Source: Heptranchias perlo (Eukaryota). From it: 64,000 nucleotides of DNA. Within the stretch, counting starts at the first letter, position 1, and the number at the start of each line of letters is the position of its first letter. Location: NCBI RefSeq assembly GCF_035084215.1, contig NC_090354.1:24552001-24616000 (forward strand), given 5' to 3'. The notes under the pieces are model-generated. The model ran no database searches, was not told the DNA's origin, and worked only from the letters and a program-made list of their open reading frames with translations. Shown here in pieces: positions 2,409 to 57,651 of this stretch. The position numbers were made by a program, and so were the translations under genes.

Positions 2409-2855
2409 ACCCAGGACAGGATCCAGATTGTCCATCAAACACTGCGTCACTTCATCAAAATCTACAGCATGAACCTGGGCTCGGTCACATGGCCCCAGGA
2501 CAAGATGGAAAACTTCCGACTTCTCCTGGATCGGCAGCTCGAAGAGCTAGAGGAATGTATCAAGAAACCGGGCTCAGAGTCCAGACCGAGGAGAAATGCC
2601 GCCATTCACAAATACTTCAGGAAACTGAGAATATTTCTCAAACAGAAGGTGGGACAATTGCTATTTGACTGTGCGATTACTGACAGATAATTAATTTCAC
2701 CCAATTTAAATCTGTTCATTCTCTAATGTATTTTCCTGAATATTTCTCTTTTTCAGAGATTCAGTGTTTGCGCCTGGGAAATAATCCGCGCCGAGACCAG
2801 GGCCCGTTTACAACAGATTCTTTTCATAACGGCACAAATCAGAAGAAAAAATTGA
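2409..2855 (+). CDS. IFN: Type I interferon gene A, partial: exon 3 2409-2648 and exon 4 2757-2855; exons 1-2 lie upstream of the window
   Basis: ttgctcag|ACC...AAG|gtggga and tttcag|AGA...TGA; TQDRIQIVHQTLRHFIKIYSMNL...LEEC...KYFRKLRIFLKQK + RFSVCAWEIIRAETRARLQQILFITAQIRRKN*; CAWE and YF motifs of type I IFN. Confidence 0.92.
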
Positions 2856-9750: not shown

Positions 9751-10859
9751 GGATAATTGAGTCCAATGGGTTCAAGTGGGGTTAACATGCTTTGATTGGA
9801 GAGGAACAATCAGACAGTGCAGAGAGGATAATATAGTGGAGAGGGAGACATGGTAACAGGCAGCAGGGAGGAGAATCCAGAGCATTTATAGTGAGAAACT
9901 GACAGATACAAATGGGAAATGAATATCACTCCAGTAAAAGTGTTATCATTAAAATAATTTATTTACACAAAAGTTCTAATTCAGTATAAAAAGTTTTCAG
10001 TTTAGAAAAACATTAGCTATTCCCCAACTTTTAATAAATATCAATAAATTAATATTTCTTTTTGAACTCACATTACGCATTGTATAAAACTTTAACATTT
10101 CATTGGATGAAGAAATCACAATAATAAATATCAATAAATTAAGATGACCCTGAGACGAGTTGAAGTGCTGGCCGCTGGGAGAGCAGAAACTAAAAGGTCA
10201 GAGCAGGTCAGGGATAAGGTCAGGGGGCATCGGTCCGGAGCTCAACCTTTGAAATCCTGACTTCACTCTGTAATCCAGTGACTGAGCTGGGTATTGGCAG
10301 GGCAATCCAGTGCAGAGAGTTGTCACTGGAAGATCAGCAACTGGAATAAGGAGCCTCACAAAGCTGAATGGCAATGGAACAGTTTCCCTATGGAATGGGG
10401 CTGGAACCAACAACCTTCTGACTCAGAGTGTTACCGCTGAGCTAAGCTGACAACATTGTAAAATTAACAATACTTTTCATGTACATAAAATATAATATTT
10501 TAGAAATTCAGAGCCTTTAACATAACTTATCATCATTCTCAGTCTGAATTAAACAAGTCATTGGAAAATCTTCATGTTTACTCTTCTCATTTTTCTATTA
10601 CACATTGTGTAAAAACTGTACCATTTGATTGCAGTGAAACTTTAACATTTCATCACAGGTAAATATTATACCAATAAATTAAAATAAATAATCAATCAAG
10701 AGATTTCTTGTTCTCTGTCAGTCACCTAGCTGCAAATTGTGTGTTTACAGCAATACAAGAAAACATCTTTTAAAATATAAATATTATTTATAAATAGATG
10801 GTCTTTTAAATAAATATTAATTGTTCCCAGTCTCTATTAAACATGTCTTTGGAAAGTCT

Positions 10860-13800
10860 TCAGTTTCTTCTTCTGATTTGTGCCGTTATGAAAAGGATCT
10901 GTTGTAAACGGGCCCTGGTCTCGGCGCGGATTATTTCCCAGGCGCAGTCACTGAATCTCTGAAAAAGAGAAATATTCAGGAAAATACATTAGAGAATGAA
11001 CAGATTTAAATTGGGTGAAATGAACTATCTGTCAGTAATCAAACAGTCAAATATCAATTGTCCCACCTTCTGTTTGAGAAACTTTCTCAGTTTCCTGAAG
11101 TATTTGTGAATGGTGGCGTTTCTCCTCGGCCTGGACTCTGAGCCCGGTTTCTTGACACATTCCTCCAGCTCTTCGAGCTGCCGATCCAGGAGAAGCCGGA
11201 AGTTTTCCACCTTGTCCTGGGGCCATGTGACTGAGCCCAGGTTCATGCTGTAGATCTTGATGAAGTGGCGCAGTGTCTGATGGACAATCTGGATCCTGTC
11301 CTGGGTCTGAGCAAAATATACACAACGACATTAGAGGGGACCTGTTCCTGTTTAGATTTAGAGTAGTTATGGAAGATGACAAGGAACAATGAAACGTGAA
11401 AATACTCAACTGCAGGAGGGCTAATTTCAGTGAGTTGAAAGGGGATCTGGCCCAAGTGGATTGGATTCAAAGACTGGCAGGTAAAACAGTAAATGATTGA
11501 TGGGGGCCTTCAAAGAGGAGATAGTTTGGGTACAGACTAGACACATACCCATGAGGGGGAAAGGAAAGGCATCCAAAGCCAGAGGTCCCTGGATGACTAA
11601 AGATATAGAGATAACAATTAAACAGAAAAAGGAGGCTTATTATAAATGCCAGGCTCATAATAAAGTGGAGAACCAAGCTAAATACAGAGTGCAGGGGAGG
11701 ACTGAAAACGGAAAAATAAAGGGGGCAAAGAGAACAAATGGGAACAGATTAACCGGTAAGATAAAAGTGAACCCAAAAGTCTTTCATAAGCATATAAATA
11801 GTAAAAGGGTAGTTAAAAGGAATGGTGGGACTGATTAGGGACCAAAAAGGAGATCTTGTGGAGGTAGAGGGCATGGCTGATGTACTAAATGAGTTCTTTG
11901 CATCTTTCTTCACAAAAGAAGAGGATGCTGCCAATATCAAAGTTAAGGAGGAAGAAGTAGCAAAATTGGATAGGATAAAAATAGATTAGAGGAGGTACTT
12001 AAAAGGTTAACAGCTTTTAAAGTAGAAAAGTCACCCGGTCTAGATGGGATGCATCCTAGTTTGCTGAGGGAAGTAAGGGTGGAGATAATGGAGGCTCAGA
12101 CCACAATCTTCCAATCCTCCTTTGACATGGGAGCAATGCCAGAGGACTGGAGGATTGAAAATGTTACACCCCTGTTCAAAAAAGGGGACAGGGATAAAGA
12201 TAGTGTTGGGGAAACTTTTGGAGACAATAAGCTGAGACAAAATTAATTGTCACTTGGAAAAAAATGGGTTAATAAATGACAGGCAGCATGGATTTATTAA
12301 AGGCAAACCTTGATGAATTCTTTGATGAAGTAAGAGAGAGTTGATAAAGGTCGAGCGGTTGATGTTGTGTATATGGACTTTAAAAAGGCATTTGATAAAG
12401 TAGCACATAGTCCACTTGTTAACAAAACTGAAGCTCATGGGATTAAGGGGGTAGTTGCAACGTGGATGCAGAATTCACTAAGGTACAGAAAGAAGAGAGC
12501 AGTGATGAATGATTGTTCTTCAGACTGAATGGAAGATTATAGCATTAGGACCACTGCTCTCTTTGAAATATCATGGACTTGCGTATATAGTGCATAATTT
12601 CAAAGTGTACAGATGACACGAAATTTAGAATTGTAGTAAACAGTGAGGAGGATAGGAACAGACTTCAGGAGGTAGTAGACAGACTGGTGAAATGGGCAGA
12701 CACATAGCAGATGAAATTTTACACAGAAAAATGTGAAATGATGCAGTTTGGTAGGAAGAATGTGGAGGGCCGATATAAACTAAATGGTACAATTTTGAAG
12801 TGCAGTGGGAACAGAGAGGCATGGGGGTGTATGTACTCAAATCTTTGAAGGAGGTAGGACAAGTTAAGAAGGCTGTTAAAAAAGCTTACAGGATCCTTGG
12901 CTTTAAAAACAGATGCATAGAGTACAAAAGCAAGGACAATGAGCTATACCTTTATGAATCATTGTTTCAGCCCCAGCTGTAATATTGTGTCCAATTCTGG
13001 GCAGCACATTTCAGGAAGGATGCCAAGACTTTAGAGATGGTACAATAGAGATTTACTAGAATGGTACCAGGGATGCGGGACTTCAGGTATGTGGAACGAC
13101 TAGGAAACGGGAATTGTTCTCTTTGAGCAGAGACGGTTAAGGGGAGATTTAATAGAGGCGTTGAAAGGATTTTGATAGAGTAAATAAGGAGAAACTGTTT
13201 CAAGTGGCAGATGGGTCGGTAACTAAAGGACACAGATTAAAGGCAATTGGCAAATGAACCAGAGGCGAGAGGGTAAGAACTTTTTTAAACAGCGAGTTGT
13301 TATGATCTGGAATGCACTGCCTGAAAGGATGGTGGAAGCTGATTCAATAACTTTCAAAAGGGAATTGGATCAATTGAGGCGGTGCATTTTTCAGGGCTAT
13401 GGGGAAAGGGCAGGAGAGTGGGACTAATTGGATTGCTCTTCAAAAACCTGACACAGGCACGATGGGCAAAATGGCCTCCTTCTGTGCTGGATCATTCTAT
13501 AATTCTATGATTTAACCTGCTGGAGATGATGCATACCATAGAGCCAATCATCACAGCTCAGGAGTGAGATGGTTACAGGGAGTGAGATGAATACAGGGAG
13601 TCAGATAGTTAAAGGACATGGAGTGAGATGTCTAGAGGGTGTGAGATAGTTAGAGGAAGTGAGATAGGGGGAGTGAGATAGAGTGTGTGAGTAAGATAGT
13701 TAGAGGGAATGAGATAGGTAGATAGAGTAAGATAGTTAGAGAGAGTGAGCAAGAGAGAGTGAAATATCGCAAGTGAATATTTCTGCCATTTTCACATCAA

Positions 13801-14305
13801 TGGGCGGCCAACACTGGATTTAAATTTCCTGATTAAAGTTCTGATAAGTTTGGTGATCTTACTCATAGTTTCCATAAACCGCCTTTTTGAATAAAATAAT
13901 ATCCAGTGTTCACTCACCTGTAACCCCTTCGAAAGTTTCATCAGGTTCAAAGACTTGGTTTTCAGCGAGAGCCTCTCTTCAACACACACTCGGGGAAAGG
14001 GACCGCCCTGAAACAGAAAATCATCACCGTTACAGACAGCCTAGAGAGAAATACAGGAGAATCAGTGGCTTTTAATTGAATCAAGTTACAAAACCCCAAA
14101 CTATTTCTCCTGATATAACTTTTCACAACAGACCCTGTGTGGTTCGGATCCGGCTCTGGGTGATGGTTAAACTCACCATTTCATTCAGTTTGCTGAGAGT
14201 CTCTGTGTTGAGAACTTGCTGTAACTGCAGCCTCTCACAGCCCAGACTCAGGGTCCCGGACAAGACCCACACAATCCAAAATCTCCAAACACTCGCCAAA
14301 TCCAT
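10860..14305 (-). CDS. IFN: Type I interferon gene B, 185 aa: exon 1b 14305-14177, exon 2 14007-13918, exon 3 11306-11067, exon 4 10958-10860
   Basis: All GT-AG phase-0 junctions, open frame. Signal peptide MDLASVWRFWIVWVLSGTLSLG|CERL (cf. IFN-alpha SLG|CDLP); Cys at mature positions 1, 29, 101, 136; CAWEIIRAE motif. Confidence 0.93.
11345..13511 (+). mobile_element. Degenerate CR1 ORF2 plus 3' tail filling intron 2 of gene B (antisense to the gene)
   Basis: WGAFKEE/HPSLLREV/PEDWRI-type peptides; ATTCTATG tail near 13495-13511. Confidence 0.85.
13560..13765. repeat. GA-rich degenerate tandem repeat (GAGTGAGATAG-like) in intron 2; counterparts at about 28020-28180, 38200-38570 and 60670-60990
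   Basis: Repeated gagtgagat/agatagttagag units. Confidence 0.65.
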
Positions 14306-14507
14306 GTTCAATTGAGCCTGGGGAAAGCGCCGATCTGAAGGGTCAGAAACCGGATCGGGTTCAGCTCCGAAAACGGTTCTTGTCACTGAATGAAACTCTG
14401 GAAGGCGAAATGCAGCCGCTTGAGATTCCAGAGCGACCGCCGGAGCTGCCGAGTCCTGTGGGTGTGCGGCTGAATGATGCTGGGAGCTTTCACTGCCATG
14501 CTGTCGG

Positions 14508-14630
14508 CTTTAAGAGGAGACACTGGCAATGTGTGGCATTAGATTCGAAAAGTGAAATCGGGCTGCAGGAGTTTCTGAGGTGAGGAATCTAAAAGTTGGA
14601 GATTCCTCAACCAGCGACTGGAAAATCCCC
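14508..14630 (-). promoter_or_regulatory. Proximal (1b) promoter of gene B: TATA-like CTTAAAG, IRF element, NF-kB site
   Basis: CTTAAAG on the - strand 14508-14514; GAAAAGTGAAA 14547-14557; GGGGATTTTCC on the - strand 14620-14630. Confidence 0.7.
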
Positions 14631-14799
14631 GATGGAAGATCACAACCAGCGCCTCGTTCCAGCTCAATGTTCCATCGATTTGTACCAATATTTCACCATG
14701 GATTTTGGAAAACCCTATTGTTTCCTCAGAATTGTAAGGATTCGCATCACGGGGGCACTAAAGGGGCAGTTGTTTAGATTGATGGACTGTCTCCATTTC

Positions 14800-15430
14800 C
14801 CCTTTACCCCATCACATTCCCCCTCTACCGTCAGTATCCGATTTCCAGCTCCCTCAGTTTCTGATCCCCTCCTCAATATCAGGGTGTCCCTCTCCTCAGG
14901 CCCTGAATCCCATCCCTTCTGTATCTGATTCTTCCTCCCTCCACGAGTTCTTATCTCCCCCTTCCCTCCGATTCTGATTTCCCCTCAGGTCCTCATTTCC
15001 CTCTTCCCATAGTGTCTGATTCCGCATCCCCTCAATATCTGATTCCCGCACTTTCCTGAGTTTATGATTTCCCCAATCCTCAGTGTCCTGTTTCCATTCC
15101 CTCAAATCTTTTTCCCCTCCACTCAGGTCCCAAGGTCCCATTTTCACTCCGTCTCAGTATATAATCTATTCCCCTAGAGCGCGATTCTCTTCCCCTCAAT
15201 ATAAGTTTAACCCTCTCGTCAGTGTTTCAGTTCCCTTCTCCACTCAGTGTCTGATTATAATTCCCCCTCAAATCTGATTCCCCCCTTGGCTCAGAGTTTG
15301 ATCCCAATTCGCGCCAGGGTCCGATTCCCTCTCTCCCCTCAGATTCTGATCACTTTCTCAGTCAGCGTCTGATGTCCCCCCTCCTCTATCTGTTTCTCCT
15401 TGTCCCCTCAGTGTCCAATTCCCCACTTTC
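14800..15430. repeat. Pyrimidine-rich TCTGATTCCC/CCTCAG degenerate minisatellite between exons 1a and 1b (also about 28800-29660, 39570-39830, 45067-45458, 46161-46560, 57900-58298, 59009-59660)
   Basis: Many ctgattcccc-like units; G-rich on the IFN sense strand in every copy. Confidence 0.75.
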
Positions 15431-15671
15431 ACCATGGGTCCAATTAGACCTCTTGGTTTCAGGAGGCTTTTGCTGTTGGACACGATCAGGGAGTGAGAGC
15501 AAGTGTAACAGAAGAGAGTGACTCTAACAATTAAAACGACCAAATGAATACTGCCCAACCAGTGAGTATTAATTGGATAAGAAACATACAACTCCATGCT
15601 ATGTCTCCTGATTTGACTTTTCACAACAAACAGACGGTTCGGATCCGGCTCTGGATGCTGTTTAAACTCAC

Positions 15672-15803
15672 CATTTCATTCAGTTTCCTCAGAGTCTCTC
15701 TGTTGAGAACTTGCTGTAACTGCAGCCTCTCACAGCCCAGACTCAGGGTCCCGGAAAACAAAACCCACACAATCCAAAATCTCCAAACACTCGCCAAATC
15801 CAT
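15672..15803 (-). CDS. IFN: Distal alternative first exon (1a) of IFN gene B, 44 codons; in-frame upstream ATG at 15818
   Basis: MDLASVWRFWIVWVLFSGTLSLGCERLQLQQVLNRETLRKLNEM|gtgagt; no private exon 2 before exon 1b. Confidence 0.75.
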
Positions 15804-15819
15804 ATTCAACCGACCCATG

Positions 15820-17240
15820 GGTAAAACGCCGATTTGAAGGATGAGAAACTGAGCGGATCGCGGTTCAGCTCCGAAAACGGTTCTGAATGAAACTCTGGAA
15901 GTCGAAATGTCGCCGCTTGTGATCCCGGAGCGGTTGCCTGAGCTGCCGAGTCCTGTGGGTGTGCGGCTGGATACTGCTGGGAGCTCTCACTGCCATGCTG
16001 TCGGCTTTAAGAGGAGAGACTGGGAATGTTTGGATTACATTCGAAAAGTGAAATCTGGCCGCAGGAGAGCAATAATTTGTGCGGTTCCTTTCTGAGGTAA
16101 GGAATCTAAAAGCTGGAGATTCGTGAACCAGCGACTGGAAAATCCCCCATCGAAGATCACAACCAGCGCTCGGTCCCAGCTCAATGTTGTCTGGATTCGA
16201 ATCAAGGCAGCACTGAAGTGGTGTCGGGGGCAGAGTCTGTATTGGGGGAGTGCGGACATGTATTGGGGGCTGTATTTTATAATCCGGGTTATAGTGACAC
16301 CGACAGCGGTGATCCCGGTGCCGCGGCTTTTAGTGCTGACATTCGGCTCCATGGAGAGCGATTCCCTTTTAAATCCACTCTCTCCCCGGTGTGCTCACAT
16401 CGTGCTTTTACTGTTCACACTTCGCGGGCTGGACATTGCAGAGAGCCCGGCTCACAGTGCAGGGTCACGGTCTGATGCTGTCTGTCCGATTCCCCTGTCG
16501 GAGATTCTGCTCTTTCAGTAGAAAAAGTTCCTCATTTCTCGGTTGTTTTTTGGAGGTTTCTTGAGATTTTCTTCTCCAAGAATATTTAATCTGCTCGGAC
16601 TCTGAATCCGAAGGAAGAACCGACTCCTTTTCTTTCATCGTTTCTTTCTTTTCTCTCTCCCGGGAAAGTGTCCGTGTCAGTTTGTCTGTGAAAATGAGCC
16701 TTGTGTCAATTTCACCGAAAGCGAAAGTGCCTCAGGGAAAGTGACGAGTCTCGTCATTTCCGAAATTGAGGAGTGTTTGTAAACAGAACGGATCACCCTG
16801 AGAGGGAGTGAGGGGGATCTGGGAAAAGGTTTGGGATATCCGGGATACCCCGGTTACTGGGGGAACATCACAAAATCACTCTCAGCTGTAACTACAAACA
16901 AAAACTTCTCCATGAGTGAATCTGGGACCGAATCTCACCAGCACCACCTGTGGACAGCGGCAGTGAGTGATTTGGGCTTGAATTAAACAATCACATTACA
17001 GCAACTTAAAGAGATACTGTTTTGGTGAAAGCCTTTCCATCAAGTCGTTTAGTTTTTGATTGACCTCCCAAGGCTGGGGATCAGTGGTTATAGGGAGAGC
17101 TAAGATTAAAACTGAAATTTTAAAATTGCGAATAATATTAGGCTAATGTTGTAATAATTATTAAAAGTTCCGAAGGGAGGCGAAAAGGGGATCAGGAAGT
17201 TTAAAAGGGAGTCTGAAAAGCACTGGTGGGCAATACACAC
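15820..17240 (-). promoter_or_regulatory. Distal (1a) promoter block of gene B
   Basis: CTTAAAG 16005-16011; IRF-E GAAAAGTGAAA 16043-16053; kB 16137-16147; ISRE-like GAAAGCGAAAGT 16717-16728; CpG-rich; near-identical in C, D and E. Confidence 0.7.
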
Positions 17241-24998: not shown

Positions 24999-27900
24999 TC
25001 AGTTTCTTCTTCTGATTTGTGCCGTTATGAAAAGGATCTGTTGTAAACGGGCCCTGGTCTCGGCGCGGATTATTTCCCAGGCGCAGTCACTGAATCTCTG
25101 AAAAAGAGAAATATTCAGGAAAATACATTAGAGAATGAACAGATTTAAATTGGGTGAAATGAACTATCTGTCAGTAATCAAACAGTCAAATATCAATTGT
25201 CCCACCTTCTGTTTGAGAAACTTTTCCAGTTTCCTGAAGTATTTGTGAATGGCGGCGTTTCTCCTGGGCCTGGACTCTGAGCCCGGTTTCTTGACACATT
25301 CCTCCAGCTCTTCGAGCTGCCGATCCAGGAGAAGCCGGAAGTTTTCCACCTTGTCCTGGGGCCATGTGACTGAGTCCAGGTTCATGCTGTAGATCTTGAT
25401 GAAGTGGCGCAGTGTCTGATGGACAATCTGGATCCTGTCCTGGGTCTGAGCAAAATACACACAAGGACATTAGAGGGGGTCTGTTCCTATTTAACCGGCC
25501 TGATATTGGGCAAACCTAACAGCCCATCACCGCAGCTCAGCTATTTCCCATTTTAATGATGGTGTAAATGTGTAAAGTGTCTGAATTTAAAACCACAGCC
25601 GAGAGATGTTTTTTCTTTTTTTTAAATTTAAGCTACGGCACATGGATTGATGTTGGCAATATTACTGGGTTAATACATAACTGGTTCCTACCACATTCCG
25701 CTGTGGGCTAATTTAACCCCTTTATTTTAGCAGACTAATTCCTTCTGTCAAATAGACAGAAGAATGTCAAACCATTTAGACCGGTTATGGACAAGGACAA
25801 GGAACAATGAAACGTGAAAACACACAACTGCAGGAGAACTAATTTCAGTGAGTTGAAAGGGGATCTGGCCCAGGTGGATTGGATTCAAAGATTGGCAGGT
25901 GAAACAGTAAATGATCAATCGGGGCCTTCAAAGAGGAGATAGTTTGGATACAGACTCGACACATTCCCATTTGGGGGAAAGGAAGGGCATCCAAAGCTAG
26001 AGGTCCCTGGATGGCTAAAGATATAGAGATAAAACTTAAACAAAAAAAGGAGGCTTATTATAACTACCAGTATGATAATAAAGTGGAGAACCAAGCTGAA
26101 TACAGAGTACAGGGGAGGACTGAAAAAGGAAAAAAAGGGGGCAAAGAGAGTATATTGGAACAGATTAATGGGTAACATAAAAGTCTTTCATAAGCAAATA
26201 AATAGTAAAAGGGTAGTTAATAGAATGGTGGAACTGATCAGGGACCAAAAAAGGAGATCTTGTGGTGGCAGAGGGAATGGCTGATGGACTGAACGAGTAC
26301 TTTGCATCTTTCTTCAAAAAAGAAGGGGATGCTGCCAATATCAAAGTAAAGGAGGAAGGAGTAGAGAAATTGGATAGGATAAAAATAGATTAAAAGGAGG
26401 TACTTAAAAGATAAGCAGCTTTTAAAATAGAGAAGTCACCCGGTCCAGATGGGATGCATTCTAGGTTGCTGAGGGAAGTAATGGTGGAGATAACGGAGGC
26501 TCCAGCCACAATCTTCCAATCCTCCTTAGATATGGGAGCAATGCCAGAGGACTGGAGGATTGCAAATGTTACAAAAAAGGGGGAGAGGGATAAACCCGGC
26601 AACAACAGGCCAGTCAGCCTAACGATGGTGATGGGGCAACTTTTAGAGACAATAAAATTAGACAAAATTAATTGTCACTTGGAAAAAAATGGGTTAATAA
26701 ATGACAGGCAGCATGGATTTATTAAAGGCAAATCGTGTTTAAGTAACCTGATTGAGTTCTTTGATGAAGTAAGAGAGAGTTGATGAAGGTCGTGTCGTTG
26801 ATGTTGTGTATATGGACTTTAAAAAGGCATTTGATAAAGTATCACATAGTCAACTTGTTAACAAAACTGAAGCTCATGGGATTAAGGGGGTAGTTGCAGC
26901 ATGAATGTAAAATTGGCTAAGGTACAGAAAGAAGAGAGCAGTGGTGAACGGTTGTTTTTCCGACTGGATGGAAGTGTAAAGTGGTGTTCCCCAGGAGTCA
27001 GTGTTAGGACCGCTGCTCTTATTGATATATTTTAATGTCCTGGACTTGCGTATATAGTGCACAATTTCAAAGTGTACAGATGACATGAAACTCAAAACTG
27101 TAGGAAACAGTGAGGAGGATAGTAACAGACTTCAGGACAACATAGACAAACTGGTGAAATGGGCAGACACATGGCAGATGAAATTTAACACAGAGAAGTG
27201 TGAAGTGATGCAGTTTGGTAGGATGATTGAGGAGAGGCAATATAAATTAAATGGTACAATTTTGAAGGGGGACGGGAACAGAGAGGCCTGGGGGTGTACA
27301 TACTCAAATCTTTGAGATGGCAGGACAAGTTGAGAAGACTGTTAAAAAAGTTTAAAGGATCCTTAGCTTTAAAAACAGATGCTTAGAGTACAAAAGCAAG
27401 GACAATGTGCTTTACCTTTATAAATCAATGTTTCAGCCCCAGCTGTAATATTGTGTCCAATTCTGGGCACCACTCTTTAGGAAGGATGCCAAAACCTTAG
27501 AGATGGTGCAGCAGAGATTGACTAGAATGGTACCAGGGATGAAGGACTTCAGGTATGTAGAGGATCGGGAGTTGTTCTCTTGAGCAGAGATGGTTAAGGG
27601 AAGTTTTAATAGAGGTGTTGAAAGGGTTTTGATAGAGTAAATAAGGAGAAACTGTTTCCAGTGGCAGATGGGTCAGTAACTAAAGGGCACAGATTAAAGG
27701 CAATTGGCAAATGAACCAGATGCGAGATGATAAGAAATGTTTTTATGCAGCGAGTTGTTATGATCTGGAATGCACTGCCTGAAAGGGTGGTGGAAGCAGA
27801 TTCAATGATAGCTTTCAAAAGGGAACTGTATCAATTGAAGGGGCATTTTTTTCAGGGCTGTGGGGAATGGGCAGGAGAGTGGGACTAATTGGATTGCTCT

Positions 27901-30017
27901 TTCAAAGACCTGACACAGGCACGATGGGCAAAATGGCCTCCTTCTGTGCTGGATCATTCTATGAATCTATGATTTAACCTGCCCGTGATGATGCATACCA
28001 CATAGCCAATCATCGCAGTTCAGGAGTGAGATGATAAGACGGAGTGAGATGAATACAGGGAGTCAGATAGTTAAAGGAAATTGAATTATTAGGAGTGAGA
28101 TGGTTGGATGGATTGAGGAGGTTTGAGGGTGTGAGAAAATTAGAGGGAGTGAGATAGAGAGAGTGAGCTGGAGCGAGTGAATATTTCTGCCATTTTCACA
28201 TCAATGGGCGGCCAACACGGGGTTTGAATTTCCTGATTAAAGTTCTGATGAGATTGTTGATCTTACTCATAGTTTCCATCAAACTCTTGCTTGAATAATA
28301 TAAAATAATATCCAGTGTTCGCTCACCTGTAACCCCCCTGAAAGTTTCACCAGGTTCAAGGACTTGGTTTTCAGCGAGAGCCTCTCTTTAACACACTGAC
28401 GGGGAAAGGCACCGCCCTGAAACAGAAGATCATCACCGTCACAGACAGCCCAGAGAGAGAAATACAGGAGAAACAGTGACTTTTAATTGAATAAAGTTAT
28501 AAAACGCCAAACTATTTCTCCTGATATGAGTTTTTACAACAAACCGGCCTTATGTGTTTCGAATCCGGCTCTGGGTGTTGTTTAAACACATCATTTCATT
28601 CAGTTTCTTGAGATTCTGTGTGTTTCGAACTTGCGGTAACTGCAGCCTCTCGCAGACCAGACTCAAGGTCCAGGACAAGACCCACACAATGCAACATCTC
28701 CAAATACTCGCCAAAACCATGCTCAAACGACCCAGGGTAAAGAGCCGATCTGAAGGATCAGAAACTGAGCGACCGCCGGAGCTGCCGAGTCCTGTGGGTG
28801 TCCCCCTCTCCCCTCAGTGTCTCTTCTGTTCTCCGCCGCCCCCCCCCCCCCCCCGCCGAGTCTGATTCACCCTCCCGCAATATAATTACCCCTCTCAGTG
28901 TTTCATTTCCTTTCTACCCTCGGGGTCTGATTGCTCCCTTCCCTCAACATCAGATTCTCCCTTTCCAGACAATATTGGATTCCCTCTACCCTCAGTCTCT
29001 GATTCCCCCCTGTATATCAGGATGTCCCCCCCCCCCACCACCAGGGCCTGATTTCCCCTCTCCTCTGTATCTGATTCTCCCACTCTCCACTTGGTCTCAT
29101 CTCCACCATCCCTCCGTTTCTGTTTCCCACTCAAACCATCATTCCCCTCTTCCCTTAATATCTGATTCCCCTCAATCTCGATTTCTCCCACCCCTCAATA
29201 TCTGATTCCCTCTCTTTCCTCAATTCATGACTCCCCCTCTCCTTAGATCTGATTCCCTCCTTAATATCAGGGTACCCCACTCCTCACTGTTCGGTTTTCG
29301 TTCTCTCCTCAGATCTGATTCCCTCCTTCACTTAGAATCTGATTCAACTCCCCCAGGGTCTGATTCAATCTCCCCCCTCAATATAAGATTACCCCCCCCC
29401 CCCTTCAGTCTTTCATTTCCTTTCTCCACTCCATATCTTATCTGTTCTACCTGTAGAATCTGACTCAACCTCCCCTCAATATAAGATTACCCACCTCATC
29501 AGTTTTTCAGTTCCCTTCTCCCCTCATGGTCTGATTCCACGTCTTCCATCAGGATCACGTTCCCTCTCCACTCAGCCCCTGATTCCCATCTCTTCTTTAC
29601 CCGATTCTCCCTGTCGCCTCAAGGTCTAATTCCTCTGTTCCAACCAGGGGTCTAATTACCCCTCCAGGTTTCAGGGACCTTTTGCTGTAGGACACTATCA
29701 ATGAGTGTACCGAGTGTAACAGTAGAGTCACTCTAACCATAAAGACGTCAAATTCATACTGAAGACTCGGTTGATATTAATTGGACAAAGTTACAAAACC
29801 CCAAACTATTTCACGTGATATGATTTTTCATAACAAACAGATCCTGTGTAGTTCGGTTCCGACTTTTGATGCTGTTTAAACTCACCATTTCATTCAGTTT
29901 CCTCAGAGTCTCTCTGTTGAGAACTTGCTGTAACTGCAGCCTCTCACAGCCCAGACTCAGGGTCCCGGAAAACAAAACCCACACAATCCAAAATCTCCAA
30001 ACACTCGCCAAATCCAT
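24999..30017 (-). CDS. IFN: Type I interferon gene C, 186 aa if exon 1a is used: exon 1a 30017-29886, exon 2 28416-28327, exon 3 25445-25206, exon 4 25097-24999
   Basis: Exons 2-4 are open with canonical splice sites (exon 2 GGAFPRQCVKERLSLKTKSLNLVKLSGGLQ); only the distal exon 1a retains a GT donor at the normal position. Confidence 0.85.
25775..27973 (+). mobile_element. Degenerate CR1 in intron 2 of gene C
   Basis: Homologous to 11345-13511; HSRLLREV, QHGFIKGKSCLSNLIEFFDEV. Confidence 0.85.
28592..28720 (-). pseudogene. Disabled proximal exon 1b of gene C
   Basis: MVLASIWRCCIVWVLSWTLSLVCERLQLPQVRNTQNLKKLNEM followed by ATGTGT instead of GTGAGT; 5' UTR deletion at about 28770; promoter missing beyond 28801. 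Confidence 0.8.
29886..30017 (-). CDS. IFN: Distal first exon (1a) of IFN gene C
   Basis: MDLASVWRFWIVWVLFSGTLSLGCERLQLQQVLNRETLRKLNEM|gtgagt. Confidence 0.8.
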
Positions 30018-35571: not shown

Positions 35572-38500
35572 TCACTTCCTTCTTCTGATTTGTGCCGTTA
35601 TGAAAAGGATCTGTTGTAAACTGGCCCTCGTCTCGGCGCGGATTATTTCCCAGGCGCAGACACTGAATCTCTGAAAAAGAGAAATATTCAGGGAAATACA
35701 TTAGAGAATGAACAGATTTAAATTGGGTGAAATGAACTAACTGTCAGTAATCAAGGAGTCAAATATCAATTGTCCCACCTTCTGTTTGAGAAATGTTTCC
35801 AGATTCCTGAAGTATCTGTGAATGGCGGCGTTTCTCCTCGGCCTGGACTCTGAGCCTGGTTTCTTGACACATTCTTCCAGCTCTTCGAGCTGCCGATCCA
35901 GGAGAAGCCAGAAGTTTTCCACCTTGTCCTGGGGCCATGTGACTGAGTCCAGGTTCATGCTGTAGATCTGGCTGATGTGATGCAGTGTTTGATGGACAAT
36001 CTGGATCCTGTCCTGGGTCTGAGCAAAATACACACAATGACATTAGAGGAGGCCTGAATCCATTTAGGGTTAGAGTAGATATGGAAAAGGACAAGGAACA
36101 GTCAAATGTGAAAATACTCAACTGGAGGAGGACTAATTTCACTGAGTTGAAAGGGGATCAGACCCAGGTGGATTGGATTCACAGATAGGCAGGTAAAACA
36201 GTAAATGAACAATGGGGGCCTTCAAAGAGGAGAAGATTTAGGTACAGACCAGACACATTCCCATGAGGGGGAAAGGAAGGGCATCAGTCAAGAACCAAGC
36301 TGAATACAAAAAATACAGAGGAGAACTGAAAAAGGAAATAAGAGGGGCAAAGATATTGTATGAGAATAGATTAGCAGTTCACATAAAAGGGAACACAAAT
36401 GTCTTTTATAAGCATATAAATAGTAAAAGGTTAGTCAAAGGATAGGTGTGACTGATTAGGGGCCTTCTTGTGGAGGCAGAGGGCATGGCTGATGGACTAA
36501 ATGACCACTTTGCATCTGTCTTCACTAAAGAAGAGGATGCTGCCAATGTTACAGTAAAGGAGGATGTAGTAGAAAAATTGGATAGGATAAAAATAGATAA
36601 AGAGGAGGCACTTAAAATGTTGGCATTGCTCAAAGTAGAAAATTCACCCATGCCGGATTGAATGCATCCCAGGTTGCTGAGGGATGTAATGGATGGAGAT
36701 AATGGAAGCTCCAGCCAGAATCTTCCAATCTTCCTTACATGTGGGAGGGGTGCCAGAGGACTGGAGGATTGCAAATGTTACACCCTCGTCAAAAAAAGGG
36801 GCGAGGCATAAACCAGGGAACTACAGGCCAGTCAGTCTAATGTTGGAGGTGGGGAAATGCTTCAAGACAATGATCAGAGACAAAATGAATTGTTACTTGG
36901 AAAAATATTGGTTAATAAATGACAGCCAACATGGATTTCAATGGAGAGAGTTAATGAAGGTGGTATGGTTAATGTCGTGTCTATGGGCTTTTAAAAGGCA
37001 TTTAATAAAATACCACATAATAGACTTGTTAGCAAAATTGAAGCCCATGGAATTAAAGGGGCAGTGGTGGCATTAATACAAAATTGGCTATGTGACAGAA
37101 AGCAGAGAGCAGCGTTGAGCGGTTGTTTTTCAGACTGGATGGAAGTGTGCAATAGTGTCCCTCAGGGGTCAGTATTAAGACCACTGCTCTATTTGATATC
37201 TATTAATGACCTGGATTTGGGTATACAGGGCATAATTTCAAAGTTTGCAGATGACGTGAAAATAGGAAATGTGGTAAAGAGTGAGGTGGATAGTAACAGA
37301 CTTAGGACATAGACAGACTGGTGAAATGAGCAAACACATGGCAGACAAAATTTAACACAAAGAAGTGTGAAGTGATGCATTTTGGTAGGAAGAATGAGGA
37401 TAGACAATATAAACTAAATGGTACCATTTTAGAGTGGGTGCAGGAACAGAGAATCCCAGGGTTGTGCATTCACAAATCTTTGAAGGTGGCAGGACAAGTT
37501 GAAATGGCTGTTTCAAAAGTATACAGGCTCCTTGGCTTTATGAACAGAGGCAAAGAGTACAAAAGCAAGGATAATGTGCTATATCTTTATTAATCACTGG
37601 TTAGGCCCCAGCTGTAATATTGTATCCAATTCTGTGCACCAATCTTTAGGAAAGATGCAAAGATCTTAAGAGAGGATGCAGAAAAGAGTTACCAGAATGG
37701 TACAAGGAATGAGGGACTCCAGTTACATGGAGAGATTAGAAAAGCTGGGATTGTTCTTACAGCGGAGAAGGTTAAGGGGAGATTTAATAGGGGTGTTCAA
37801 AATCATGAAGGGTTTTGATAAATTGTTTCCAGTGGCAGGAGGGTCAGTAATCAGGGACACAGATTTAAGGTAATTGGCAAAAGAACCAGAGGCGAGATGA
37901 GGAGAATTTTTTTTACACAGCGAGTTGTAATGATCTGGTATACACTGCCTGAAAGGGTGATGGAAGCAGATTCAATAATAACTTTCAAAAGGGAATTGGA
38001 TAAATACTTGAAGGGGAAAAATTTACCTGGCTATGGGGAAAGGGCAGAGGGGTGGGACTAATTGGATAGCTCTTTCAAAGAGCCAGCACTGCACGATGGG
38101 CTAAATGGCCTCCTTCTGTGCTGGACCATTCTCGGATTCCATGAATTGACCTCTCCAGGATGGGGCAAGCCTCACAGCCAATCACCGCAGCTCAAGAGTG
38201 AGCTGGTTAGAGGGAGTGAGATGATTTCAGGGAGTCAGATAAAGGGCGTGAAACGATTCGAAGGAGTGAGATGTGTAAGAGGAAGTGAAATTGAGGGAAA
38301 CAGATGGTGACAGGCTGCATGATGATTAGAGGGGTTTAGATAGTTAGAAGGATTGAGATGGTTAGAGGGTGTGCGATAGTTAGAGTGTTATAGATAGAGT
38401 GAGTAAGTTAGAAGGAGTGTGATAGAGAGAGTGAGAGAGAGAGAGATAGTGCCTGAGATAGTGTGAGTGAGATAGAGAAAATTAGATTGGATGGTTATGA

Positions 38501-39099
38501 TAGAGTGAGTGAGATAGTGAGCGTGAGATAGAGGGACTGAGAAAGTGAGAGTGCGATAGAGCGAGTGAATAGTTCTGCCATTTTCACATCAATGGGCGGC
38601 CAATACTGGATTTAAATTTCCTGATTAAAGTTCTGATCAGATTGTTCATATTTCTTATACTTTCTATAAAACTCCTGTTTGAATAAAATAAAATCCAGTG
38701 TTCACTCACCTGTAACCCCTTCGAAAGTTTCATCAGGTTCAAGGGCTTGGTTTTCAGCGAGAGCCTCTCTTCAACACACACTCGGGGAAAGGGACCGCCC
38801 TGAAACAGAAGATCATCACCGTTACAGACAGCCCAGAGAGAGAAATACAGGAGAATCAGTGTCTATTAATTGAATAAAGTTACAAAATCCCAAACTATTT
38901 CTCCTGATACAACTTTTCACAACAGACCTTGTGGGGTTCGGATCCGGCTCTGGATGATGGTTAAACTCACCATTTCATTCAGTTTGCTCAGAGTCTCTAT
39001 GTTGAGAACTTGCTGTAACTGCAGCCTCTCACAGCCCAGACTCAGGGTCCCGGACAAGACCCACACAATCCAAAATCTCCAAACACTCGCCAAATCCAT
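35572..39099 (-). CDS. IFN: Type I interferon gene D, 185 aa: exon 1b 39099-38971, exon 2 38799-38710, exon 3 36018-35779, exon 4 35670-35572
   Basis: Open frame, GT-AG phase-0 introns, 4 Cys, ends RFSVCAWEIIRAETRASLQQILFITAQIRRRK*. Confidence 0.92.
36063..38145 (+). mobile_element. Degenerate CR1 in intron 2 of gene D
   Basis: NDHFASVFTKEE, PGNYRPVSL, SKFADDVK peptides; very similar to 61083-63183. Confidence 0.85.
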
Positions 39100-39405: not shown

Positions 39406-40067
39406 GATGGAAGATCACAACCAGCGCCTCGTTCCAGCTCAATGTTCCATCGATTTGTACCAATATTTTCAACATGGATTTTGGAAAACGCTATTGTTTC
39501 CTCAGAATTGTAAGAATTCGCATCACGGGGGCACTAAAGGGGCAGTTGTTTCGATTGATGGACTGTCTCCATTTCCCCTTTCCCCCAGACATCACATTCC
39601 CCCTCCACCGTCAGTATCCGATTTCCAGCTCCCTCAGTTTCTGATTCCACTTCTTCACTTCAGTTTATCATTCCCCCTCTTCTCAGTACCTGGTTCCCAT
39701 TCTCCCCTCAGATCTGATTTGTCCCTCCACTCAGAGTCTGATTCCATCTCCTCCTAGGGTCTGATTCCCTCTCTCCCCTCAGTATCTCCTCTGGTCTCCC
39801 CTCAGAGTCACCCTCCCCTCAAGATAATTATCATAAGAACATAAGAACATAAGAAATTGGAGCAGGAGTAGGCCAATCGGCCCCTCGAGCCTGCTCCGCC
39901 ATTCAATAAGATCATGGCTGATCTGATCCCAACCACAAATCTAAAGAACACAAGAAGTCGGAGCAGGACCCGGCCACATAGCCCCTGGGCCCTCTCCGCC
40001 ACCCACAGGGCATTGACCGATCCGAACTCAGCTTCATGTCCAATTTCCTGCCCGCTCCCCATAACCC

Positions 40068-42887
40068 CTAATTCCCTTTACTTCTAGGAAACTCTATTTC
40101 TGTTTTAAATTTATCGAATGATGTAGCTTCCACAGCTTCCTGGGGCAGCAAATTCCACAGACCTACCACCCTCTGAGTGAAGAAGTTTCTCCTCATCTCA
40201 GTTTTGAAAGAGCAGCCCCTTATTCTAAGATTATGCCCCCTAGTTCTAGTTTCACCCATCTTTGGGAACATCCTTACTGCATCCACCCGATCAAGACCCT
40301 TCACAATCTTATATGTTTCAATAAGATCGCCTCTCATTCTTCTGAACTCCAATGAGTAGAGTCCCAATCTACTCAACCTCTCCTCATATGTCCGCCCCCT
40401 CATCCCCGGGATTAACCGAGTGAACCTTCTTTGTACTGCCTCGAGAGCAAGTATGTCTTTTCTTAAGTATGGAGACCAAAACTGTATGCAGTATTCCAGG
40501 TGCGGTCTCACCAATACCTTATATAACTGCAGCAATACCTCCTTGTTTTTATATTCTATCCCCCTAGCAATAAAAGCCAACATTCCGTTGGCTTTCTTGA
40601 TCACCTGCTGCACCTGCATACCAACTTTTTGATTTTCTTGCACTAGGACCCCCAGATCCCTTTGTACTGCAGTACTTTCCAGTCTCTCGCCATTAAGAAA
40701 ATAACTTGCTCTCTGATTTTTCCTGCCAAAGTGCATAACCTCACATTTTCCAATATTATATTGCATCTGCCAAATCTCCGCCCACTCACCCAGCCTGTCT
40801 ATATCCCCTTGCAGGTTTTTTATGTCCTCCTCACTCTCTACTTTCCCTCCCATCTTTGTATCATCTGCAAATTTTGATATGTTGCACTCGGTCCCCTCCT
40901 CCAAATCGTTAATATAGATTGTAAAGAGTTGGGGACCCAGCACCGACCCCTGTGGAACACCACTGGTTACTGGTTGCCAGTCCGAAAATGAACCATTTAT
41001 CCCAACTCTCTGCTTCCTGTTCGATAACCAATCCTCCACCCATGCCAGAATATTACCCCCAATCCCGTGATTTTTTATCTTAAGTAATAATCTTTTATGT
41101 GGCACCTTGTCGAATGCCTTCTGGAAGTCTAAATACACTATGTCCACTGGTTCCCCTTTATCCACCCTATACGTTATATCCTCGAAGAACTCAAGCAAAT
41201 TTGTCAGACATGACTTCCCCTTCATAAAGCCATGCTGACTTTGTCCTATTAAATTATGCTTATCTAAATGTTCCGTTACTGTCTCCTTAATAATAGACTC
41301 CAAAATTTTACCCACCACAGATGTCAGGCTAACTGGCCTATAATTTCCAGCCTTCTGCCTACTACCCTTTTTAAATAACGGTGTTACATTAGCAGTTTTC
41401 CAATCTGCCGGGACCTCTCCTGAGTCCAGGGAATTTTGGAAAACTATCACCAAAGCATCCACAATCCCTACTGCCACTTCCCTCAAGACCCTAGGATGGA
41501 AGCCATCAGGTCCAGGGGATTTATCCGCCTTGAGTCCCATTATTTTACTGAGTACCATCTCCTGAGTGATTTTAATCGTATTTAGCTCCTCCCCCCCGAG
41601 AGTCCCCTGTTTGTCCAGTGTTGGGATATTCTTAGTGTCCTCTACTGTAAAGACTGAAACAAAATATTTGTTCAGCATTTTTGCCATCTCCATGTTTCCC
41701 ACCATTAATTTCCCGGTCTCATCCTCTAAGGGACCTATGTTTGCCTTAGCCACCCTTTTTCTTTTTATATAACTATAGAAACTCTTGCTATCTGTTTTTA
41801 TATTTTTTGCTAATTTCTTTTCATAATCTAACTTCCCTTTCTTAATCAATCCTTTAGTTACTTTTTGCTGTCTTTTGAAGAATTCCCAATCTTCTATCCT
41901 CCCACTAAGTTTGGCTACCTTATATGTCCTTGTTTTTAGTCGGATACTATCCTTGATTTCTTTACTTAGCCACGGATGGCTGTCATTTCTTTTACACCCT
42001 TTTTTCCTCAGTGGAATATATTTATTTTGAAAGTTGTAAAATAACTCCCTAAATGAACACCACTGCTCATGTACCGTCTTACCCTTTAATCTATTTTCCC
42101 AGTCCACTTTAATCAATTCCGCTCTCATACCATCATAGTCTCCTTTATTCAAGCTCAGTACGCTTGTTTGAGAATCAACCTTCTCACCCTCTAATTGGAT
42201 ATGGAATTCAACCATGTTGTGGTCGCTCGTTCCAAGGGGATCCTTAACTAGGACATTATTAATTAATCCTGACTCATTACACAGGACCAGGTCCAAGGTT
42301 GCCTGCCCCCTTGTAGGATCAGTTACATACTGCTCAAGAAATCCATCCCTGATGCACTCAATGAACTCGTCCTCAAGGCTGCTCTGCCCAATTTGATTTG
42401 TCCAGTTAATATGATAATTAAAATCCCCCATAATTATGGCTGTTCCCTTATTACATGCCCCGACTATCTCCTGATTAATACTTCTTCCAGCAGAGTTGCA
42501 ACTATTAGGAGGCCTATATACTACGCCCACTAATGTTTTTTTTCCCTTATTATTCCTTATCTCCACCCAAACTGTTTCATTATCTTGATGCTTTGTCCCA
42601 ATATCATTTCTCTGTATTACAGTGATTCCTTCCTTTATTAACATAGCCACCCCACCTCCCCTTCCTTCCTGCCTGTCCTTCCTGATTGTTAAATACCCTG
42701 GCATATTTAATTCCCAGTCGTTGTCACCCTGCAGCCATGTTTCTGTAATGGCCACAAGATCATACCCATACGTAGTTATTTGTGCCGTTAACTCGTCCAT
42801 TTTATTACGAATGCTACGTGCATTCAGATAAAGAACTTTCAAATCTGTTTTGTGACGCTTAGTTCCTGCTTTTTCCTTTTTTAACAC
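40068..42887 (-). CDS. CR1 ORF2: APE endonuclease plus reverse transcriptase (939 aa; apparent small frameshift in the last ~10 codons)
   Basis: YLNARSI, ITETWL, GDFN, SDHN (APE); YRPVSLTS, DFQKAFDKV, GVPQGSVLGP, FADD (RT). Confidence 0.93.
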   Translation of the reverse strand: MLKKEKAGTKRHKTDLKVLYLNARSIRNKMDELTAQITTYGYDLVAITETWLQGDNDWELNMPGYLTIRKDRQEGRGGGVAMLIKEGITVIQRNDIGTKHQDNETVWVEIRNNKGKKTLVGVVYRPPNSCNSAGRSINQEIVGACNKGTAIIMGDFNYHINWTNQIGQSSLEDEFIECIRDGFLEQYVTDPTRGQATLDLVLCNESGLINNVLVKDPLGTSDHNMVEFHIQLEGEKVDSQTSVLSLNKGDYDGMRAELIKVDWENRLKGKTVHEQWCSFRELFYNFQNKYIPLRKKGCKRNDSHPWLSKEIKDSIRLKTRTYKVAKLSGRIEDWEFFKRQQKVTKGLIKKGKLDYEKKLAKNIKTDSKSFYSYIKRKRVAKANIGPLEDETGKLMVGNMEMAKMLNKYFVSVFTVEDTKNIPTLDKQGTLGGEELNTIKITQEMVLSKIMGLKADKSPGPDGFHPRVLREVAVGIVDALVIVFQNSLDSGEVPADWKTANVTPLFKKGSRQKAGNYRPVSLTSVVGKILESIIKETVTEHLDKHNLIGQSQHGFMKGKSCLTNLLEFFEDITYRVDKGEPVDIVYLDFQKAFDKVPHKRLLLKIKNHGIGGNILAWVEDWLSNRKQRVGINGSFSDWQPVTSGVPQGSVLGPQLFTIYINDLEEGTECNISKFADDTKMGGKVESEEDIKNLQGDIDRLGEWAEIWQMQYNIGKCEVMHFGRKNQRASYFLNGERLESTAVQRDLGVLVQENQKVGMQVQQVIKKANGMLAFIARGIEYKNKEVLLQLYKVLVRPHLEYCIQFWSPYLRKDILALEAVQRRFTRLIPGMRGRTYEERLSRLGLYSLEFRRMRGDLIETYKIVKGLDRVDAVRMFPKMGETRTRGHNLRIRGCSFKTEMRRNFFTQRVVGLWNLLPQEAVEATSFDKFKTEIEFPRSKGN

Positions 42888-42970
42888 TTTACCTATTACT
42901 CCATACCTTCTGTCCCTTCCTGTTACGCTTTCCTCTCTCTCCCTGCTCAGGTTCCCAACCCCCTGCCACT

Positions 42971-43921
42971 TTAGTTTAAACCCTCCCCAACAGCACTAGC
43001 AAACACTCCTCCTAGGACAGCGGTCCCGGCCCTGCCCAGGTGCAGACCATCCGGTTTGTACTGGTCCCACCTCCCCCAGAACCGTTTCCAGTGTCCCAGG
43101 AATTTGAATCCCTCCCCCTTGCACCATTCCTCTAGCCACGTATTCATTTGAAATATCCTCCTATTTCTACTCTGACTAGCACGTGGCACTGGCAGCAATC
43201 CTGAGATTACTACCTTTGAGGTCCTATTTTTTAATTTACCTCCTAACTCCCTATATTCTGCTTTTAGGACCTCATCCCCTTTTTTACCTATATCGTTGGT
43301 GCCTATGTGCACCACGACAGCTGGCTGTTCGCCCTCCCCCTCCAAAATGTTCTGTAGCCGCTCCGAGACATCCTTGATCCTTGCACCAGGGAGGCAACAC
43401 ACCATCCTGGAGTCTCGGTTGCGGCCGCAGAAACGCCTGTCTATTCCCCTTACAATTGAGTCCCCTATCACTATAGCTCTGCCACTCTTTTTCCTCCCAG
43501 CCTGTGCAGCAGAGCTACCCGTGGTGCCAGGAAGTTGGCTGCTGCTGCCTTCCCCTGATAAGTCATCCCCCCCAACAGCATCCAAAGTGGCATATCTGTT
43601 TGAGAGGGGGATGGCCACAGGGGACCCCTGCACTACCTGCCTGCATCTCTTACTCTTCCTGGTGGTCACCCATTCACTTCCTGCCTGTATACCCTTTACC
43701 TGCGGTGTGACCAACTCGCTAAACGTGCTATCCACGAGTTTCTCTGCATCGCGGATGCTCCACAGTGAGTCCACCCGCAGCTCCAGCTCCGAGATACGAT
43801 CGGTCAGTAGCTGCAGGTGGACACACTTCCCGCACACATGGTCGGCAGGGACACTGGTAGTGTCCATGACTTCCCACATCTTGCAGGAGGAGCATATCAC
43901 GGGTGCGAGGTCTGCTGCCAT
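42971..43921 (-). CDS. CR1 ORF1: zinc finger/leucine zipper plus SGNH esterase domain (316 aa)
   Basis: CSSC...CGKC, heptad Leu, IVIGDS, HIGTND, DGLHL motifs. Confidence 0.9.
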   Translation of the reverse strand: MAADLAPVICSSCKMWEVMDTTSVPADHVCGKCVHLQLLTDRISELELRVDSLWSIRDAEKLVDSTFSELVTPQVKGIQAGSEWVTTRKSKRCRQVVQGSPVAIPLSNRYATLDAVGGDDLSGEGSSSQLPGTTGSSAAQAGRKKSGRAIVIGDSIVRGIDRRFCGRNRDSRMVCCLPGARIKDVSERLQNILEGEGEQPAVVVHIGTNDIGKKGDEVLKAEYRELGGKLKNRTSKVVISGLLPVPRASQSRNRRIFQMNTWLEEWCKGEGFKFLGHWKRFWGRWDQYKPDGLHLGRAGTAVLGGVFASAVGEGLN

Positions 43922-44212
43922 GACTTGCCTTAGCTTAGTTACCCCTTTTAAATTACGTTGAAATTAGAAAATGTTAACTATACTAGGGACCTAGGTTCAC
44001 TAAAAAAAAACAAAAAAAAAAACACTATCTGCTATAAAACCTGCAGATCTTCCCTTTCTTATTACTTTACTTACAGTAAAATGGTAGAAATACTCACCTG
44101 AACCTACTCACCAATCAGCTGCCTCCCCTGTGCCGCGTCACTTTCTGACTGGTGACGGCACCCCGAACTCTGCCGCTGGTCTCAGAGTCTCGGTCTCAGA
44201 GTAAGCTCTGGT

Positions 44213-44411
44213 CTCGCTCTCTCCGCGCTGTTTATATCCCCGCTCTGGTCTCGCTCTCTCCCGCCGCTCACCGACTGGACTCTCGCTCTCTCCGCGCTGT
44301 TTATATCTCCGCTCTGGTCTCGCTCTTTACCGCCGCTCACCGACTGGACTCTCGCTCTCTCCGCGCTGTTTTTATCCCCGCTCTGGTCTCGCTCTCTCCC
44401 GCCGCTCACCG
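44213..44411. repeat. 69-bp tandem repeat, about 3 copies, in the CR1 5' UTR
   Basis: Units start at 44213, 44282 and 44351 (ctcgctctctccgcgctgttt...). Confidence 0.9.
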
Positions 44412-44480
44412 CTCTCAGGTCCACTACCGCTCTGCAGGAAAAGCAAGGCAAAGCAGCACCTCCTTCCCCCACTTTACCAA

Positions 44481-46807: not shown

Positions 46808-46939
46808 CATTTCATTCAGTTTCCTCAGAGTCTCTCTGTTGAGAACTTGCTGTAACTGCAGCCTCTCACAGCCCAGACTCAGGGTCCAGGGAAACAAGAC
46901 CAAAACAATCCAAAATCTCCAAACACTCGCCAAATCCAT
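46808..46939 (-). CDS. IFN: Distal alternative first exon (1a) of IFN gene D
   Basis: MDLASVWRFWIVLVLFPWTLSLGCERLQLQQVLNRETLRKLNEM|gtgagt. Confidence 0.72.
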
Positions 46940-57519: not shown

Positions 57520-57651
57520 ATGGATTTGGCGAGTGTTTGGAGATTTTGGATTGTGTGGGTCTTGTTTTCCGGGACCCTGAGTCTGGGCTGTGAGAGGCTG
57601 CAGTTACAGCAAGTTCTCAACAGAGAGACTCTGAGGAAACTGAATGAAATG
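57520..57651 (+). CDS. IFN: Distal alternative first exon (1a) of IFN gene E
   Basis: MDLASVWRFWIVWVLFSGTLSLGCERLQLQQVLNRETLRKLNEM|gtgagt; upstream in-frame ATG at 57505. Confidence 0.72.

Follow-up and report, generated by a model that had tools for sequence, protein, structure and literature searches.

Ten type I interferon (IFN) genes of the shark Heptranchias perlo carry two coding first exons in tandem, a distal exon 1a and a proximal exon 1b, ahead of a single set of exons 2 to 4. They belong to a cluster of 16 type I interferon loci that overlaps the window, the stretch of 64,000 nucleotides (nt) analyzed here (contig NC_090354.1, positions 24552001-24616000 of a 3.25-Gb genome). The distal exon is intact in nine of the ten doubled genes, namely all nine whose exons 2 to 4 are open, whereas the proximal unit is disabled in six of these nine (C and F to J) and damaged in a seventh (D). 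We consider it probable that this pattern reflects the replacement of one promoter and first exon by another, still in progress, with 1a as the likely working start and 1b being lost.

The distal and proximal first exons

Adding 200 kb of neighboring DNA to the window, we mapped exons over 264 kb, using window coordinates throughout and naming the loci A to P. The doubled first exon occurs in 10 of the 16 genes (B to K), with four inside the window (B to E) and six beside it; A and L to P have a single exon 1. The original prediction had described the doubling in the four window genes, and its four exon 1a positions are exact (Table 1). Each holds an intact 132-nt open frame (MDLASVWRFW...KLNEM) followed by the donor GTGAGT, and a 129-nt exon 1b is present in all four genes. 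In none of the ten doubled genes did tblastn detect an exon 2 between the two first exons, so 1a must splice past 1b.

The further claim that both exon types end in GTGAGT and lie behind promoters of their own stood in part. The donor follows 1a of B to E but not C 1b (ATG/ATGTGT, with the slash at the exon end). NF-kB-like, TTAAA, and interferon regulatory factor element (IRF-E)–like motifs lie behind both exons of B, but this block is gone from C 1b, and the TTAAA box is deleted in D 1b. The labels IRF-E, NF-kB, and interferon-stimulated response element (ISRE) are presumptive, being matches to consensus patterns. An exception for decay had been made in passing; the decay is real, but that clause conceals most of the story, since loss of 1b is the main pattern.

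In gene B, the duplicated block spans 632 nt at 83% identity (15557-16188 versus 14060-14671), extending from ~385 nt 5' of the ATG to ~115 nt inside the intron. This identity is far above chance, yet too low for a false duplication made in assembly. As the layout also recurs in ten genes on both strands, with no N in the 264 kb, an assembly artefact, for which no support was found, has next to no probability.

Exon 1a is predicted to encode a signal-peptide-like N-terminus and the start of the mature protein, as originally proposed, and in 1a and the intact 1b copies alike the sequence pattern is that of a hydrophobic core with S(-3)/G(-1) before the first cysteine. B1a and B1b are separated by two nonsynonymous and two synonymous changes and one codon indel. 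The two mature gene B proteins would differ at two residues (R35/T35 and R39/S39) and their signal peptides at one, so that diversification at the protein level would be slight. Promoter choice between two secreted isoforms, put forward earlier for the whole group, is possible only in B, E, and perhaps D, and is unsupported as a general rule. A doubled N-terminus appears in none of 34 homologous proteins, although protein models would not reveal an unused exon.

Across 15700-16999, the ten 1a cassettes differ pairwise by 0.2 to 2.8% per 100-nt bin. Past the edges, the difference is 8% in the donor bin, 17 to 20% beyond the donor, and at least 15% upstream of 17000. The 811-nt upstream part of 1a has ten matches in the genome, all in the cluster and 97 to 100% identical; hence, it is not a mobile element. 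We infer that gene conversion together with selection may keep the cassette uniform up to a boundary at the donor. The one doubled gene without an intact 1a is K, in which 1a has a 1-nt insertion and exon 3 carries a stop and a frameshift; exons 2 to 4 are open in genes A to J. An ISRE-like motif at ~-924 and a second NF-kB-like motif at ~-1048 lie behind all ten copies of 1a and, at that spacing, behind no 1b, and the NF-kB site of gene E 1a carries one change. A search of the 1 kb 5' of 1a revealed no canonical sense donor and thus no teleost-like non-coding upstream exon. An in-frame upstream ATG (at 15818 in gene B, adding MGRLN) is present in the leaders of D1b and of all ten 1a copies, and one NCBI model (P0040) uses it.

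The proximal unit has been damaged in three separate ways. In five copies (C, F, G, H, and I, hereafter C-type), the donor reads ATG/ATGTGT and the NF-kB/IRF-E/TTAAA block is deleted, with exons 2 to 4 and their splice sites intact. A 2-nt deletion shifts the frame of 1b in J, and a 22-nt deletion removes the TTAAA box in D. With 1b disabled, genes C and F to J can make interferon only from 1a. Three copies of 1b remain whole, those of B, E, and the dead gene K, and B and E are the only open genes in which both units are. Between the C-type 1b and B1b there are 13 nonsynonymous and 2 synonymous changes (proportions of differing sites pN 0.128 and pS 0.073), and the C-type changes G18W, G23V, Q30P, and L33R occur in none of 27 other shark proteins; judged by this comparison of sequences, the C-type 1b is evolving like dead DNA. 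The scenario of 1a as a decaying relic, raised with the original prediction, is reversed: it is 1b that decays, with 1a intact in nine genes. Among the eight NCBI gene models examined, which are themselves predictions, six use 1a (C and F to J), one uses 1b (B), and one is that of A.

Two further features of the 1b copies deserve description. The C-type exons have IWRCC or VWRCC in common with four sawshark interferons, and the C-type 1b is possibly an older exon that escaped conversion. All 1b leaders except that of D1b contain a pyrimidine-rich TTCAG ~29 nt 5' of the ATG (14334 in B), which reads TTCAA in 1a; transcripts from 1a could use it as a cryptic acceptor and would then run into a premature stop. 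A second AG, in frame and 12 nt 5' of the ATG (14317), is found in B1b alone.

Contigs, rival explanations, and origin

One sample, sequenced in three runs, gave three sets of contigs (X1 to X3; word shares 0.12, 0.11, and 0.03), which were aligned to 10400-16900; such contigs show presence, not absence, and neither starts nor levels. RNA content is presumed for X2 and X3, but X1 must contain RNA, since contig X1-1 links exon 2 to exon 3 and exon 3 to exon 4 precisely at the exon boundaries. All three runs have contigs over exon 1a. In contig X3-22 (159 nt, depth 2.62), letters 62-150 correspond to exon 2 and differ from B at 11 positions, as many as in gene G, whose 1b is dead. The X3 depth in the exon 1a bin, 0.74, equals 2.62 x 61 / 217 and so is accounted for exactly by the first 61 letters of this contig; 60 or 62 letters do not fit, and the next upstream bin is empty. 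By this depth arithmetic on one low-depth contig, X3-22 would carry a joint between 1a and exon 2. In X2, no contig accounts for 133 depth x nt over exon 1a. The two bins over exon 1b and its leader (14089-14522) have no cover in any of the three runs, which we did not use as evidence. Portions of the unique sequence 5' of the 1a TTAAA box are also covered in all three runs, as far as the distal ISRE-like motif (15932-16721); these contigs could represent antisense RNA, enhancer RNA, or an extended leader with numerous upstream ATGs.

In the course of events that we favor, a second promoter and first exon would have come to lie upstream of an interferon gene, via tandem duplication or the capture of a truncated neighbor. 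The distal unit would drive transcription, splice over 1b to exon 2, and yield a predicted secreted interferon, prevailing perhaps because of the distal enhancer motifs that 1b is without. The doubled gene would have multiplied, after which 1b was lost or damaged three separate times, and B and E would be a leftover stage with both units whole, not a maintained two-isoform switch.

Several observations weigh against this replacement. The five C-type genes represent a single evolutionary event, gene A is open yet without 1a, B and E keep entire 1b promoters, and the NCBI model of gene B, a prediction, starts at 1b. Exon 1b has the residues common among sharks at two positions (T35 in 19 and S39 in 17 of 27 proteins), where 1a has R at both. 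The intact 1b copies differ from their own 1a by 3 to 5%, against 15 to 18% in the adjacent intron (Fisher p 0.0003-0.02), and this low divergence could reflect selection on 1b. However, distances to 1a of 4.7% for the dead J1b and 5.4% for the 1b of K, itself a dead gene, compare with 3.1% for B1b and E1b, so the closeness is no proof of such selection. On the side of the contigs, the joint of 1a and exon 2 is absent from the 15 joints listed out of 45, which are dominated by repeat-derived contigs and include no interferon joint. Another contig of equal depth x length could mimic the X3-22 signal (24 contig pieces were listed, with 9413 others), and X3-22 may stem from gene A or from an allele of another paralogue.

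A maintained dual promoter, which we regard as rather unlikely, would have both starts firing in B, E, and perhaps D, giving two secreted forms under different signals, with 1b as a proximal NF-kB/IRF module, 1a as a feedback start acting via the distal ISRE, and the C-type genes specialized on 1a. The whole units of B and E, the stronger conservation of 1b exons relative to their introns, the confinement of the ISRE-like and second NF-kB-like motifs to 1a, and the two promoter regions used by teleost IFNa genes in the accessible text of PMC5127012 are all consistent with it. Yet the dead J1b and K 1b lie about as close to 1a, which fits conversion or recent loss equally; the 1a-type leader of D1b is a sign of conversion; both units are whole in an open gene in only two of ten cases; and the products differ by two mature residues. 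It is more doubtful still that B and E combine a live, early NF-kB/IRF promoter at 1b with a live, ISRE-boosted feedback promoter at 1a, both products being secreted, and that D adds a signal-peptide-free transcript from the leader of a long interspersed nuclear element (LINE; see below). Were two promoters live in B and E, the relay from IFN-beta to IFN-alpha would take place inside one gene.

Conversion is able to homogenize non-functional DNA, and the C-type genes are young, near-identical copies. These points would suit a reading in which a partial duplication left 1a behind as a silent relic, conversion alone keeps its copies alike, and the dead-1b genes are pseudogenes. Such a relic is nevertheless very improbable: exons 2 to 4 are open in all six dead-1b genes, the homogenized tract stops at the 1a donor, and contigs cover 1a, one of them implying splicing of 1a to a G-type exon 2.

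As for how the doubling arose before 1a began to replace 1b, a promoter tree separates the ten 1a copies from a group of 1b copies and A1, and places D1b between the two (the C-type 1b rows were left out, their block being deleted). The separate 1a and 1b groups argue for one event before the expansion; a single ancestral event would thus have made the doubled gene, which then multiplied. In a tree of exon 1 with its flank, 1a is paraphyletic, with weak support. We tentatively raise, as an origin compatible with replacement, that 1a, instead of being a tandem duplicate of 1b, is the 5' half of an upstream paralogue that lost its exons 2 to 4 by deletion and was captured by the downstream gene. 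In favor of this origin, the two copies of the duplicated block in gene B are separated by ~890 nt unrelated to it. Of 27 proteins from other sharks, the four that have the C-type IWRCC all come from a sawshark, a hint of an older lineage of paralogues. Gene A, for its part, has the 44 codons of the ancestral form and a flank of 1b type but is without 1a. But A1 nests among the 1b copies, with weak support, and the spacer of A is cut against a repeated element, fitting loss of 1a. Furthermore, no unfused gene with the 1a upstream region was found in the genome, and the single-start genes L to P share at most ~75 nt of leader with 1a or 1b. The 1b-type flank of gene A stops abruptly at this element (-6141, L017), which also lies near O and P, and gene A has a TTAAA deletion in common with D1b.

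The LINE of gene D and the wider cluster

The LINE between D1a and D1b is 5.2 kb long and full-length-looking, and the same site in E has no LINE. Contig X1-1 is assigned to gene D, with which it agrees at both of two exon-2 differences; its listed exon-3 differences are those of D and one common to E. The 29 letters that it carries 5' of exon 2 end in TTCAG and match neither exon 1 nor the intron, and the sole TTCAG/GT within 12 kb upstream of D exon 2 is the consensus donor at 44098, in the LINE leader. X1-1 likely splices from there to D exon 2, with 24 of its leading letters unaligned. As the LINE leader has no ATG, such a D transcript would start at the exon 2 Met and lack a signal peptide. 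An acceptor near 44432 in the same leader bounds a possible internal exon of 334 nt, out of frame. Between D and E, a second LINE has a reverse transcriptase (RT) frame of 638 codons (49992-51908, + strand).

A genome-wide search with PF00143 scored 32 candidates and returned 16 matches, every one inside this cluster. Gene B exon 3 matches Pfam Interferon above the cut-off (E 1.6e-12) and exon 4 below it (E 8.5e-05), while exons 1a, 1b, and 2, each searched alone against Pfam, gave no hit. The genes consist of four phase-0 exons and three introns with mapped GT/AG sites, and the four cysteines of the gene B mature peptide fall one in each exon. Exon 3 is 60 to 84% identical to annotated proteins of other sharks and rays. 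Linkage to growth hormone and CD79 marks the type I interferons of cartilaginous fish, and a Hormone_1 match, at most a candidate for growth hormone, lies ~160 kb from gene A on the same contig. Genes L and M (170503-182019; L011 and L012) look chimeric, with exons 1-2 at ~60% and exons 3-4 at 96 to 97% identity to B. Genes N and O (188556 and 207608; L013 and L015) have a leader donor GG/GTAAGA ~85 nt 5' of the ATG and a TTTCAG acceptor farther on, which suggests a short intron in the 5' untranslated region.

Table 1. Positions of the mapped features, in window coordinates (ORF, open reading frame)
Feature	Position	Strand	Remarks
Gene A exons 3-4	2409-2852	+	single first exon, 1b-type, 4.8 kb before window start
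Gene B exon 4, coding part with stop	10860-10958	-
Gene B exon 3	11067-11306	-	Pfam Interferon match
Gene B exon 2	13918-14007	-
Gene B exon 1b, coding part	14177-14305	-	43 codons; donor intact
Gene B 1b promoter	14508-14629	-	TTAAAG 14508-14513; IRF-E-like 14547-14557; NF-kB-like 14620-14629
Spacer between 1a and 1b, gene B	14810-15410	.	degenerate, purine-rich; matches only within this cluster
Gene B exon 1a, coding part	15672-15803	-	44 codons; signal-peptide-like stretch and mature start; phase-0 GTGAGT donor
1a cassette, gene B	15672-17000	-	promoter, leader, and exon; near-identical in all ten doubled genes; CpG-rich
1a TATA-like box TTAAAG, gene B	16005-16010	-
IRF-E-like GAAAAGTGAAA, 1a promoter, gene B	16043-16053	+	putative label
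NF-kB-like GGGATTTTCC, 1a promoter, gene B	16137-16146	-
Distal ISRE-like GAAAGCGAAAG, gene B	16717-16727	+
Second, distal NF-kB-like site, gene B	16842-16851	-
Gene C exons 2-4	28327-28416, 25206-25445, 25002-25097 (span 25002-28416)	-	open
Gene C exon 1b	28592-28720	-	pseudo-exon; donor GT lost, promoter block deleted
Gene C exon 1a	29886-30017	-	sole usable first exon of C
Gene D exons 2-4	38710-38799, 35779-36018, 35578-35670 (span 35578-38799)	-	open
Gene D exon 1b	38971-39099	-	coding part and donor intact; TTAAA box deleted; 1a-type leader
LINE between D1a and D1b	39832-45067	-	esterase-type ORF1; endonuclease and RT ORF2; gene's orientation; donor CAG/GTGAGT at 44098
Gene D exon 1a	46808-46939	-	intact
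Gene E exon 1a	57520-57651	+	intact
Gene E exon 1b	60138-60266	+	intact
Gene E exons 2-4	60436-60525, 63228-63467, 63565-63657 (span 60436-63657)	+	open

Meaning and comparison with known systems

The cluster presents successive stages of a probable promoter swap side by side, from whole (B and E) through weakened (D) and frameshifted (J) to erased (C and F to I), and so opens to test how new first exons displace old ones in an immune gene family. For annotation, a gene model that begins at the proximal exon is wrong in six genes; no new kind of interferon protein is added. If 1a is the working start, nine interferons with diverged bodies would stand under one nearly invariant regulatory cassette, a way to widen dose and ligand variety with induction kept uniform. 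Mammalian IFN-alpha genes, in contrast, have subtype-specific promoters.

Type I interferons of cartilaginous fish have four exons and three introns in the available text of PMC5332411, and the genes described here agree with them in the Pfam Interferon domain, the four phase-0 exons, the four cysteines, and the tandem cluster. They differ in the second promoter and coding first exon of ten genes, of which the available parts of PMC5332411 and PMC6640115 make no mention; "exon" and "splic" are absent from the main text of the latter, as far as it is accessible. No description of a doubled interferon first exon was found in the literature searched, which comprised titles and abstract starts with incomplete coverage. 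As far as searched, the layout is new for interferons; duplicated first exons in general are already known.

With two promoter regions and splicing at the 5' end, teleost IFNa genes produce forms that have no signal peptide, according to the accessible parts of PMC5127012, PMC3828176, and PMC5332411. Teleost IFNa/IFN-phi1 and the shark genes are alike in having two 5' regions that feed common downstream exons of an intron-containing type I IFN. In the teleost system as those parts present it, however, the long transcript is without a signal peptide and gives intracellular IFN, whereas the shark distal exon reproduces the signal-peptide exon in full, and it is the proximal exon that is being lost. 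Because the shark distal exon keeps the signal-peptide-like stretch, this is not the teleost two-promoter system. That system is further marked by two transcription starts that differ in inducibility. A LINE-leader transcript of gene D, if real, would be convergent on teleost intracellular IFN.

Tandem coding first exons spliced to constant exons, with birth and death of first exons, are described for UGT1, GCNT2, UGT2A, and the protocadherins in the accessible text of PMC1885805. The likeness lies in tandem coding first exons that each have a promoter and a donor, an arrangement that is whole in B and E (two of the ten doubled genes). In the UGT1, GCNT2, and protocadherin clusters, as that text has it, the first exons diversify the protein, whereas the shark 1a and 1b are near-identical in protein. 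Only two first exons are present here, one of them dead in most genes, and the unit that multiplied is the whole doubled gene.

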